DNA from: Escherichia phage 24-32N
Length of the DNA stretch: 64,000 bases
Sequence record: PV933157.1
Reading direction: 5' to 3' (one strand)
Part shown: positions 35,341 through 35,453 of the stretch, piece by piece
Layout: each line of letters begins with the position of its first letter
How positions within the stretch are numbered: position 1 is the stretch's first letter
Translations under genes and position numbers: made by a program
Notes under the pieces: generated by a model
Told to the model about the DNA's origin: nothing
The model's database searches: none
What the model saw: the letters and a program-made list of their open reading frames with translations, nothing else

Positions 35341-35453
35341 TGGTGGGTCTGGTGAAGTAGATAGGGTTCGATTCCCTCCAGTAGAGAAATCTACTAGCGT
35401 GCTTGGTGCACGAATAAGACTTAATACTGATGGTTCGATTCCATCCCCCACTA
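35341..35453 (+). tRNA. 112-nt tRNA-like element with internal hairpins
   Basis: Acceptor TGGTGGG/CCCACTA, 3' T-arm GATGG-TTCGATT-CCATC, plus second T-arm-like hairpin AGGG-TTCGATT-CCCT and two further hairpins inside; too long for canonical tRNA. Confidence 0.3.

Follow-up and report, generated by a model that had tools for sequence, protein, structure and literature searches.

The locus and its tRNA-like element

The window analyzed in this study is a stretch of 64,000 nucleotides (nt) from Escherichia phage 24-32N (PV933157.1), an N4-like coliphage of the genus Gamaleyavirus; all positions refer to this window unless another record is named. A non-coding tract of 2 kb (approximately 34130-36200), which shares 80-95% identity with N4-like coliphages of Gamaleyavirus (Schitoviridae), carries on its plus strand a tRNA-like element at 35341-35453. 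The element measures 113 nt, one more than the 112 nt given in a preliminary description made from the sequence letters. No open reading frame of at least 50 codons overlaps the element, and the 3456-codon open reading frame on the minus strand encodes the virion RNA polymerase, as judged by comparison with gp50 of phage G7C. ARAGORN calls two tRNAs in the window, both on the plus strand, at 35754-35829 (anticodon unreadable) and 35836-35911 (Ile-AAT). The former is reported as 'tRNA-???' and scores 40 bits in Rfam, and the latter carries an unusual anticodon, AAT (A34), and lacks an encoded CCA. A strong intrinsic terminator occurs only once in the tract (36157-36198), after both of these tRNAs, and no strong or convincing sigma-70 promoter was found inside the tract or just upstream of the element, suggesting that the tract is probably transcribed as one long precursor.

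The comparative evidence described below defines a structured RNA family of enterobacterial lytic phages that is new and well supported. On balance, we lean towards reading 35341-35453 as a discrete, non-decoding tRNA-like RNA and as one member of this previously undescribed phage family.

From 5' to 3', the element begins with one strand of an acceptor-type stem (TGGTGGG, 35341-35347), which pairs with CCCACTA at 35447-35453 to form 7 base pairs (bp) including one G·U; a predicted RNase P cleavage site likely lies directly upstream of 35341. The 5' junction strand (TCTGGTGAAGTAGAT, 35348-35362) follows, containing an invariant GG (35351-35352) that resembles a stemless D-loop and an invariant TAGAT (35358-35362). 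Next come H1, an internal T-arm-like hairpin whose loop fits the T-loop consensus (AGGG-TTCGATT-CCCT, 35363-35377), a CC linker (35378-35379), and H2, a variable hairpin (AGTAGA-GAAA-TCTACT, 35380-35395) that is read here as the closed 'acceptor' helix of an inner unit. The dinucleotide AG and the D-arm-like hairpin H3 with its invariant UUGG loop (CGTGC-TTGGT-GCACG) occupy 35396-35412, the hairpin itself spanning 35398-35412. The 3' junction strand (AATAAGACTTAATACT, 35413-35428), with a conserved G.CTTA(A/G)TA motif at 35420-35426, then leads into a canonical T-arm with an invariant T-loop consensus (GATGG-TTCGATT-CCATC, 35429-35445), an invariant bulged C at 35446 whose facing base is always mismatched (T, A or C against C), and the acceptor 3' strand. 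The bases following this strand are CC-T, so that CCA is not encoded; across the family, the 3' tails vary by clade (CCT, CCC, TCC, TTT, AAC, ACT and ATT). The acceptor stem, the 3' T-arm, the second T-arm-like hairpin and the two further stem-loops named in the preliminary description are all present.

Structure and covariation

The minimum-free-energy fold of the lone sequence contains all five helices exactly as drawn. Its energy is only about two standard deviations below that of dinucleotide shuffles (z = -1.95), a modest gain, and thermodynamics alone would therefore not exclude chance.

The case for the structure is carried by an alignment of 22 distinct copies (13 Gamaleyavirus, 4 Kaypoctavirus and 5 T4-like), which corresponds to the covariance check in homologues that had been proposed for the element. 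In a model of 27 pairs, standard pairs fill 97.8% of 593 cells and compensatory changes are seen in 15 of the 27 pairs. The covariation score is 0.51, compared with no more than 0.075 for registers slid by 1-3 columns, and none of 500 shuffles reached the observed values; sliding the 3' partners by 1-3 columns reduced pairing to 41-56%, with at most 4 compensatory pairs. RNAalifold recovered the same helices as the hand-drawn model, with double changes in 13 of its 25 pairs.

All five helices contribute compensatory changes. These were found in 5 of the 7 acceptor pairs and 5 of the 6 pairs of H2, in two pairs of the 3' T-arm (100% of cells paired) and in two pairs of H3 (GC to AU and CG to AU; 100% of cells paired), while H1 has 98.9% of its cells paired and pair 25:37 appears as GC, CG and UA. 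The acceptor stem reads TGGTGGG/CCCACTA, TGGCAAG/CTTGCCA or CATGGCG/CGCTATG depending on the clade, so that its sequence differs wholly and its pairing is kept. This comparative evidence excludes chance as the source of the five-helix structure. It also identifies the plus strand as the RNA strand, since on the opposite strand the G·U cells, which number more than 60, would turn into A·C mismatches.

The stems and the H2 loop, which varies in both length and sequence, are free to drift. The invariant positions comprise both T-loops (UUCRANU; in H1, the loop bases T, T, C, A and T) with the closing GG/CC of both T-stems, the GG and subsequent UAGAU of the 5' junction strand (alignment columns G11, G12 and T18-T22), the UUGG of the H3 loop, the G.CUUA(A/G)UA of the 3' junction strand (G78, C80, T81, T82, A83, T85 and A86), and the C or CC following each T-stem (C38 and C39 in the linker). 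The element thereby contains two unpaired GG motifs, both of them invariant. No helix involving the 5' junction strand is supported in the alignment: one junction-strand candidate (columns 17-20/92-95) is 88.6% paired without covariation and with two invariant pairs, a second (columns 14-18/87-91) is 69% paired and no better than slid registers, and a possible 3-bp contact of the 3' junction strand with 35357-35359 likewise shows no covariation. A covariance model built for the element scores family members at 104-134 bits and ordinary tRNAs at 7-19 bits.

Distribution among phages

A blastn search with the element found it in 56 phage records. Approximately 27 of these are Gamaleyavirus genomes with 86-97% identity, and the Klebsiella N4-like Kaypoctavirus phages KP8, VLCpiP4a, phi1_146050 and K60PH164C1 carry copies of 69-73% identity. 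The element also occurs in T4-like myophages of three genera, namely Dhakavirus (VR5, VR25 and TH15), Kanagawavirus (PEi20 and KLB31) and Karamvirus (CkP1), at approximately 76% identity over window positions 35357-35447; the reciprocal blastn search with the VR5 copy returned the same set of records. The hosts of the carrier phages are E. coli, Klebsiella, Shigella, Citrobacter and Edwardsiella.

In the T4-like phages, the element carries no annotation and is embedded in the tRNA cluster, on the same strand as the tRNAs, its acceptor 5' strand beginning 2-17 nt past the CCA of the upstream tRNA. In PEi20, it starts 2 nt after the CCA of tRNA-Met/Ile2 (CAU); in VR5, it starts 17 nt after the upstream CCA and ends 8 nt ahead of tRNA-Arg. 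Across two unrelated groups of lytic enterobacterial phages, the element is always found on the tRNA strand, inside or next to tRNA genes. Phages G7C and U1G retain it in fetched stretches of approximately 3.1 kb in which ARAGORN calls no tRNA, which argues that the element is not a by-product of tRNA genes.

A host origin was rejected, as 5,426 complete E. coli genomes gave no match and the family motif was absent when 185,579 bacterial and archaeal species were scanned with one genome per species. Scanning IMG/VR and metagenomes by pattern mostly returned N4-like and T4-like contigs again; of the weaker hits, three (L034, L038 and L039) were rejected as family members and are just closely spaced tRNA genes, and two (L036 and L041) are ambiguous. 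A literature search returned no account of the element from N4-like or T4-like phages, although this is weak evidence, as most subscription-journal content lay outside the search.

A proposed nesting of two tRNA upper halves without an anticodon

The preliminary description had offered a tRNA with insertions, a fused tRNA pair or a tRNA-derived RNA as possible identities. ARAGORN calls no tRNA at 35341-35453, and Rfam 15 has nothing at the element at gathering thresholds, its tRNA model (RF00005) being silent even at E values up to 10. The covariation-supported structure contains no anticodon arm (5-bp stem, 7-nt loop, U33 and purine 37), nor is an anticodon stem formed from the junction strands, where the tested candidates show no covariation. 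What is present is a 7-bp acceptor and a 5-bp T-stem with a UUCRANY-type loop, both covarying and separated by one extra bulged C. Family members are 109-117 nt long compared with 70-95 nt for a tRNA, in keeping with the earlier statement that the element is too long to be one, and after the acceptor comes an unpaired strand of 15 nt, with no D-arm after nucleotides 8-9, the D-arm-like H3 appearing only after H2.

A true tRNA gene with an intron or insertion, spliced to a decoding tRNA of 70-90 nt, would account for the canonical acceptor and T-arm, and the heptamer CTTAATA/CTTAGTA can be read as a Leu anticodon loop. The heptamer, however, has no flanking stem, and its position 37 would be U. 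Together with the missing D-arm and the silence of ARAGORN and Rfam, the hairpins that would have to be the insert are conserved and covary like a functional RNA rather than behaving like an intron; no group I intron or bulge-helix-bulge features were seen, and the element is kept in the G7C and U1G stretches mentioned above. An interrupted tRNA is therefore extremely improbable, and the proposal of a tRNA with insertions was dropped.

The internal organization of the element instead shows two parallel units of the form "UA-NNN-[5-bp T-arm]-C-[6-7-bp helix]", at 35358-35385 and 35425-35453, with 17 of 22 aligned positions identical between them in the window. Comparing the sequences of both units also identified the CC linker as the counterpart of the bulged C at 35446. 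Additionally, the covariance model partially matches two genuine tRNAs in tandem on a jumbo-phage contig of 310 kb from IMG/VR (L031), the aligned part being H1-H2-H3. In this alignment, H1 falls on the T-arm of one tRNA, H2 on its acceptor 3' strand, GCCA and the acceptor 5' strand of the next tRNA, AG on nucleotides 8-9, and H3 on the D-arm of that next tRNA. The element therefore copies the upper half of a tRNA twice, with no anticodon, and it is tRNA-derived in form, having an acceptor stem and T-arm and an interior that aligns with tRNA junction parts. The 'fused tRNA pair' of the preliminary description arguably holds, insofar as the architecture reads as two nested tRNA upper halves and H1-H2-H3 matches a tandem-pair junction.

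The same correspondence could be taken to mean that the element is the decayed remnant of two tandem tRNA genes, now functionless. Its parts do map onto tRNA parts, the tract holds other odd tRNA-like pieces along with the tRNA of unreadable anticodon, and many relatives lack the element. A pseudo-tRNA dimer would not be expected to show compensatory changes in all five helices, to persist at approximately 76-80% identity between unrelated phage families with its stems changed and its pairing kept, or to be retained where the fetched stretch has no ARAGORN-callable tRNA. We regard such decay as highly improbable; the element is not a pseudogene, nor is it a tRNA carrying an insertion.

The contig matched by the model has peculiarities of its own. 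Two adjacent tRNA-like units at 181-326 of L031, neither called by ARAGORN, have apparently swapped acceptor strands: the 5' strand of the first unit (GCGCAGG) pairs at 6 of 7 positions with the 3' strand of the second (CCAGCGC-TCCA), and the 3' strand of the first pairs at 7 of 7 positions with the 5' strand of the second across a GCCA loop (ATGGGAC-GCCA-GTCCCAT). The only relative of L031, contig L033, is identical, so that the swap could be a coincidence. A further region of L031 (357-475; 31 bits with the element model) was rejected as a family member, having only GTAGAT with a T-arm and a second T-arm in common.

Proposed folding, processing and function

A non-decoding tRNA-like RNA of this design could fold as two bodies. 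The outer body would consist of the terminal stem and the 3' T-arm, docked by the stemless 5' GG as in a transfer-messenger RNA (tmRNA) tRNA-like domain. The inner body, replacing the anticodon stem, would be circularly permuted, with the H1 T-arm, C, the closed helix H2, AG and the D-arm-like H3 in that order. Two T-loops with two GG partners would give two 'elbows'.

The element would be transcribed within a long tRNA-cluster precursor and is probably cut out by tRNA-processing enzymes. Its 5' end would be cut by RNase P, for which an acceptor/T-arm stack suffices, and its 3' end would be trimmed, with CCA possibly added by the host enzyme. Excision from a tRNA precursor is the simplest route given the flanking tRNAs 2-17 nt away, the shared strand, the acceptor/T-arm end, and the lack of a promoter or terminator belonging to the element itself. 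The T4 tRNAs and species 1 RNA are released from a tRNA precursor in this manner, by an RNase P cut and 3' trimming. The range of substrates accepted by RNase P has been described (PMC11143913).

The fixed tRNA-core nucleotides and junction strands, combined with drifting stems, suggest that the RNA most likely mimics the shape of a tRNA; as judged from the sequences, the pattern is one of selection for a tRNA-like shape rather than for decoding or for recognition by one synthetase. The RNA would then bind, and thereby titrate or recruit, a protein that recognizes the tRNA elbow and acceptor, and it would play no part in decoding or aminoacylation. For an accessory, horizontally shared and shape-conserved mimic, a binder (decoy, sponge or cofactor) is the easiest explanation. 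The RNA of mycobacteriophage DS6A that is described below offers one precedent for it. More specifically, and as a tentative suggestion whose probability we place low, the element may be a two-bodied tRNA mimic, its acceptor/T-arm/D-loop bodies joined at the would-be anticodon stems, that is exchanged between unrelated lytic phages and acts as a decoy or inhibitor of a host factor that reads tRNA shape. Candidate targets would include a tRNA-directed anti-phage nuclease, a nucleotidyltransferase toxin, or the SmpB/tmRNA rescue system. If the decoy reading is true, an RNA-only gene for counter-defence or translation hijacking lies hidden among phage tRNAs.

Several observations weigh against a discrete, functional tRNA mimic. 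The element is dispensable: many Gamaleyaviruses lack it, and the ECBP1 clade carries a different 62-nt cassette in its slot. Among the neighbouring protein genes, none is conserved in a way that would point to a partner. The 22 sequences fall mostly into three tight clades, so that independent compensatory events are far fewer than the cell counts, although the between-clade substitutions by themselves cover every helix. Seven of the 22 sequences, all from Gamaleyavirus, have an A×A mismatch at the first acceptor pair, and no tertiary contact shows covariation in the alignment. The two-elbow fold, RNase P processing and CCA addition are steps that we infer, the fold entirely from motif logic, and the bulged C at the junction of T-stem and acceptor is non-standard for substrates of RNase P or the CCA-adding enzyme.

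Neighbouring structured modules

The cassette in ECBP1 (L003 1951-2012), TGGGGGTAAGTCGTAACCATACGACGGCGTAAGTACCAGATGAGACTTCTGGACGCCCCTA, has the same flanks as 35341-35453 and comprises an acceptor-like closing stem and two hairpins, with no T-arm; the slot may therefore accept alternative RNA payloads.

Three further modules surround the element on the plus strand. A second anticodon-less mini tRNA-like unit of approximately 70 nt, with an encoded CCA, lies at 35194-35263 and reads TCCGGTG-TA-GGTACTAG-(CGTT GTGCACA AACG)-TGAGTGT-TCTGG TTCGAGT CCAGA-CGCCGGA-ACCA. It is conserved in Kaypoctavirus, where the T-stem is compensatorily GTTGG/CCAAC, and ECBP1 and U1G carry it as well; in the window it goes uncalled by ARAGORN, and the element covariance model gives it only 10.6 bits. 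Directly upstream of the element, 35264-35328 contains a long-range stem (TTCAAAGTAGCA ... TGCTACTTTGAA) around approximately 40 nt. KP8 and G7C keep the closing stem with different sequences and inserts, that of G7C having a T-arm-like TTAGG-TTCAACT-CCTAA, and this segment looks like another modular structured RNA. Directly downstream, an insert of approximately 105 nt at 35456-35563 is closed by TTTGAGGTG and CACCTCAAA; it is found in UE-M6, CU10EC, ECBP1 and the IMG/VR contig L016 and not in G7C-type phages, where GAAGTCGCCAGG comes immediately after the element. The 'empty' 2-kb tract of these therapeutic-candidate phages is thus packed with structured RNA genes.

This chain of modules with terminal stems (35194-35263, 35264-35328 and 35459-35562) is one of the observations that would fit a role in cis, in which the element serves as a cutting or blocking point for RNase P and 3' exonucleases, like the mitochondrial 't-elements', and has no function in trans. 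In the ECBP1 clade, the slot still has an acceptor-like closing stem around a swapped interior, and the 3' tails are not conserved, as such a processing or stability module would allow. A cutting signal, however, needs the acceptor and T-arm only, whereas the parts that stay invariant between N4-like and T4-like phages also include H1, H3, the two GG motifs and the two junction strands; moreover, the flanking tRNAs of the T4-like phages already supply RNase P sites 2-17 nt away. A purely cis-acting module is accordingly unlikely.

Comparison with known tRNA-like RNAs

In circularly permuted tRNA genes, the 3' half stands ahead of the 5' half and the acceptor is closed by an intervening loop. 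The inner unit of the element resembles those of Cyanidioschyzon merolae in its order of T-arm, acceptor 3' strand, loop, acceptor 5' strand, two nucleotides and D-arm, and this permuted order (H1, CC, H2, AG, H3) is confined to the inner unit. Unlike the permuted genes, the element reconstitutes no anticodon arm and has no bulge-helix-bulge motif, and its permuted unit is nested in another acceptor/T-arm unit instead of being free-standing. The element adds a new, nested design to the catalogue of tRNA-like folds.

The YrlA-type Y RNA-like RNAs (RF02553) are approximately 110 nt long, contain a tRNA-like module with mimics of the T-arm and D-arm, and also occur in phages. The element is similar to them in size and in having a tRNA-like module, but its termini form an acceptor stem, where the YrlA RNAs have a Ro-binding helix. 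The Rfam YrlA model gives no match on the element, the only YrlA hit in the tract overlying true tRNAs, and no Ro/Rsr gene was noted in the annotated stretches that were fetched. A tRNA-like partner of Ro/TROVE is mentioned in PMC7824862.

With the tRNA-like domain of tmRNA, the element shares an acceptor stacked on a T-arm, a GG-containing D-loop analogue without a D-stem, the lack of an anticodon arm, and the emergence of another RNA domain at the position of the anticodon stem. It differs in that the inserted domain is itself tRNA-like and in the bulged C between T-arm and acceptor. G3:U70 is not conserved, as the G·U pair lies at 2:71 in Gamaleyavirus and at 4:69 in the T4-like copies; pair 3:70 is AU, GC, CG, UA or UG across the family. 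The discriminator base is variable, no CCA or ACCA is encoded in the element, no tag reading frame with a resume codon exists within the 113 nt, and the sole match of the Rfam tmRNA models (E values up to 10) covers 15 nt of the H1 loop region at 11.1 bits.

A tmRNA-like resume-and-tag module does occur upstream in the same tract, at 34735-34900 on the plus strand. Its tag frame (34801-34833) reads ...CAUAAAU GCA AAC GAU GAU GUU AUU CUG AUG GCG GCG UAA, encoding ANDDVILMAA*. The module scores below threshold in Rfam (tmRNA_permuted 31 bits and beta_tmRNA 19 bits), and ARAGORN reports no tmRNA. Other N4-like phages conserve the frame, with synonymous third-position changes, and encode ANDDVVLMAA, ANDDVVLMVA and ANEEAYLMVA. 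By blastn, 771 phage records from unrelated groups contain the module, which is hardly ever annotated in them; they include Felixounavirus (ANDNVFLAVA in typing phage 1, inside the tRNA cluster with its own promoter-like site), the Kuttervirus Det7 (ANDNTFLAVA), myophages of Klebsiella, Cronobacter and E. coli of approximately 47 kb, and Erwinia phages. Det7 (L047 ~788-850) and ECBP1 (L003 1180-1251) have closed mini tRNA-like units 160-190 nt upstream of the tag, each with an acceptor, a D-arm-like hairpin, a T-arm and no anticodon arm; the ECBP1 unit is forced by ARAGORN into a 'tRNA-Ala(cgc)', and the window has no such unit.

The element could in principle be the tRNA-like partner of this module, which lies 540 nt upstream, in a two-piece trans-translation RNA, or it could be a decoy that titrates SmpB. 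The outer unit does resemble the tmRNA tRNA-like domain in its acceptor, stemless GG loop, T-arm and missing anticodon arm, and the tag frame in the same tract is under a peptide-type constraint. Additionally, a phage RNA consisting only of the tmRNA tRNA-like domain, from mycobacteriophage DS6A, has been reported as an inhibitor of tmRNA, perhaps through titration of SmpB (PMC4131195). Against a partnership stand the absent G3:U70 and CCA, the variable discriminator base, and the restriction of the Rfam tmRNA match to 15 nt of H1. In the fetched stretches, G7C, U1G and CU10EC have the element without a tag match, ECBP1 has the tag without the element, and the T4-like loci have no tag. Since the two modules occur independently, their partnership is disfavored, and we judge this explanation as a whole improbable.

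The stable RNAs of T4-like tRNA clusters offer the last point of comparison for the proposed tRNA-like RNA. The T4 species 1 (rnaC) and species 2 (rnaD) RNAs were sequenced in the 1970s, and reviews describe them as stable RNAs of the tRNA region with unknown roles. Like the element, they are stable non-coding RNAs (119-139 nt) in a phage tRNA cluster, and rnaC has an acceptor-like stem adjoining a canonical T-arm with no anticodon. Unlike the element, rnaC has one T-arm and a long hairpin in place of the H1/H2/H3 set. The shared CTTAATA and T-arm gave a lead towards homology with rnaC, which was rejected. Searches with blastn linked rnaC and the element in neither direction, and none of 751 rnaC records contains the element; the element covariance model gives rnaC 16.3 bits, compared with 19.2 bits for T4 tRNA-Thr; and CUUAAUA is the strand of a covarying helix in rnaC, the heptamer not being conserved in the rnaC of phage Melville.

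The two kinds of RNA coexist. VR25 carries the element together with T4-type rnaD and rnaC (L015 2775-3042), its rnaC being 97% identical to that of T4, and PEi20 carries the element with a homologue of the rnaC 3' half (L018 5147-5213), from which it follows that the element neither takes the place of rnaC nor substitutes for it in T4-like clusters. In VR5, rnaD is present and rnaC is absent from its T4 position.

Overall, the element is small, strongly supported by covariation, common to N4-like podophages and T4-like myophages, and invisible to standard annotation tools, and it provides a tractable handle on the role of anticodon-less tRNA mimics in lytic phages. Phage tRNA clusters have long been known to contain stable RNAs other than tRNAs, and the element is a second, unrelated and structurally cleaner example. 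Among known RNAs, it stands nearest to the tRNA-like stable RNAs encoded in phage tRNA clusters and represented by rnaC and rnaD, although it is not of the rnaC family.

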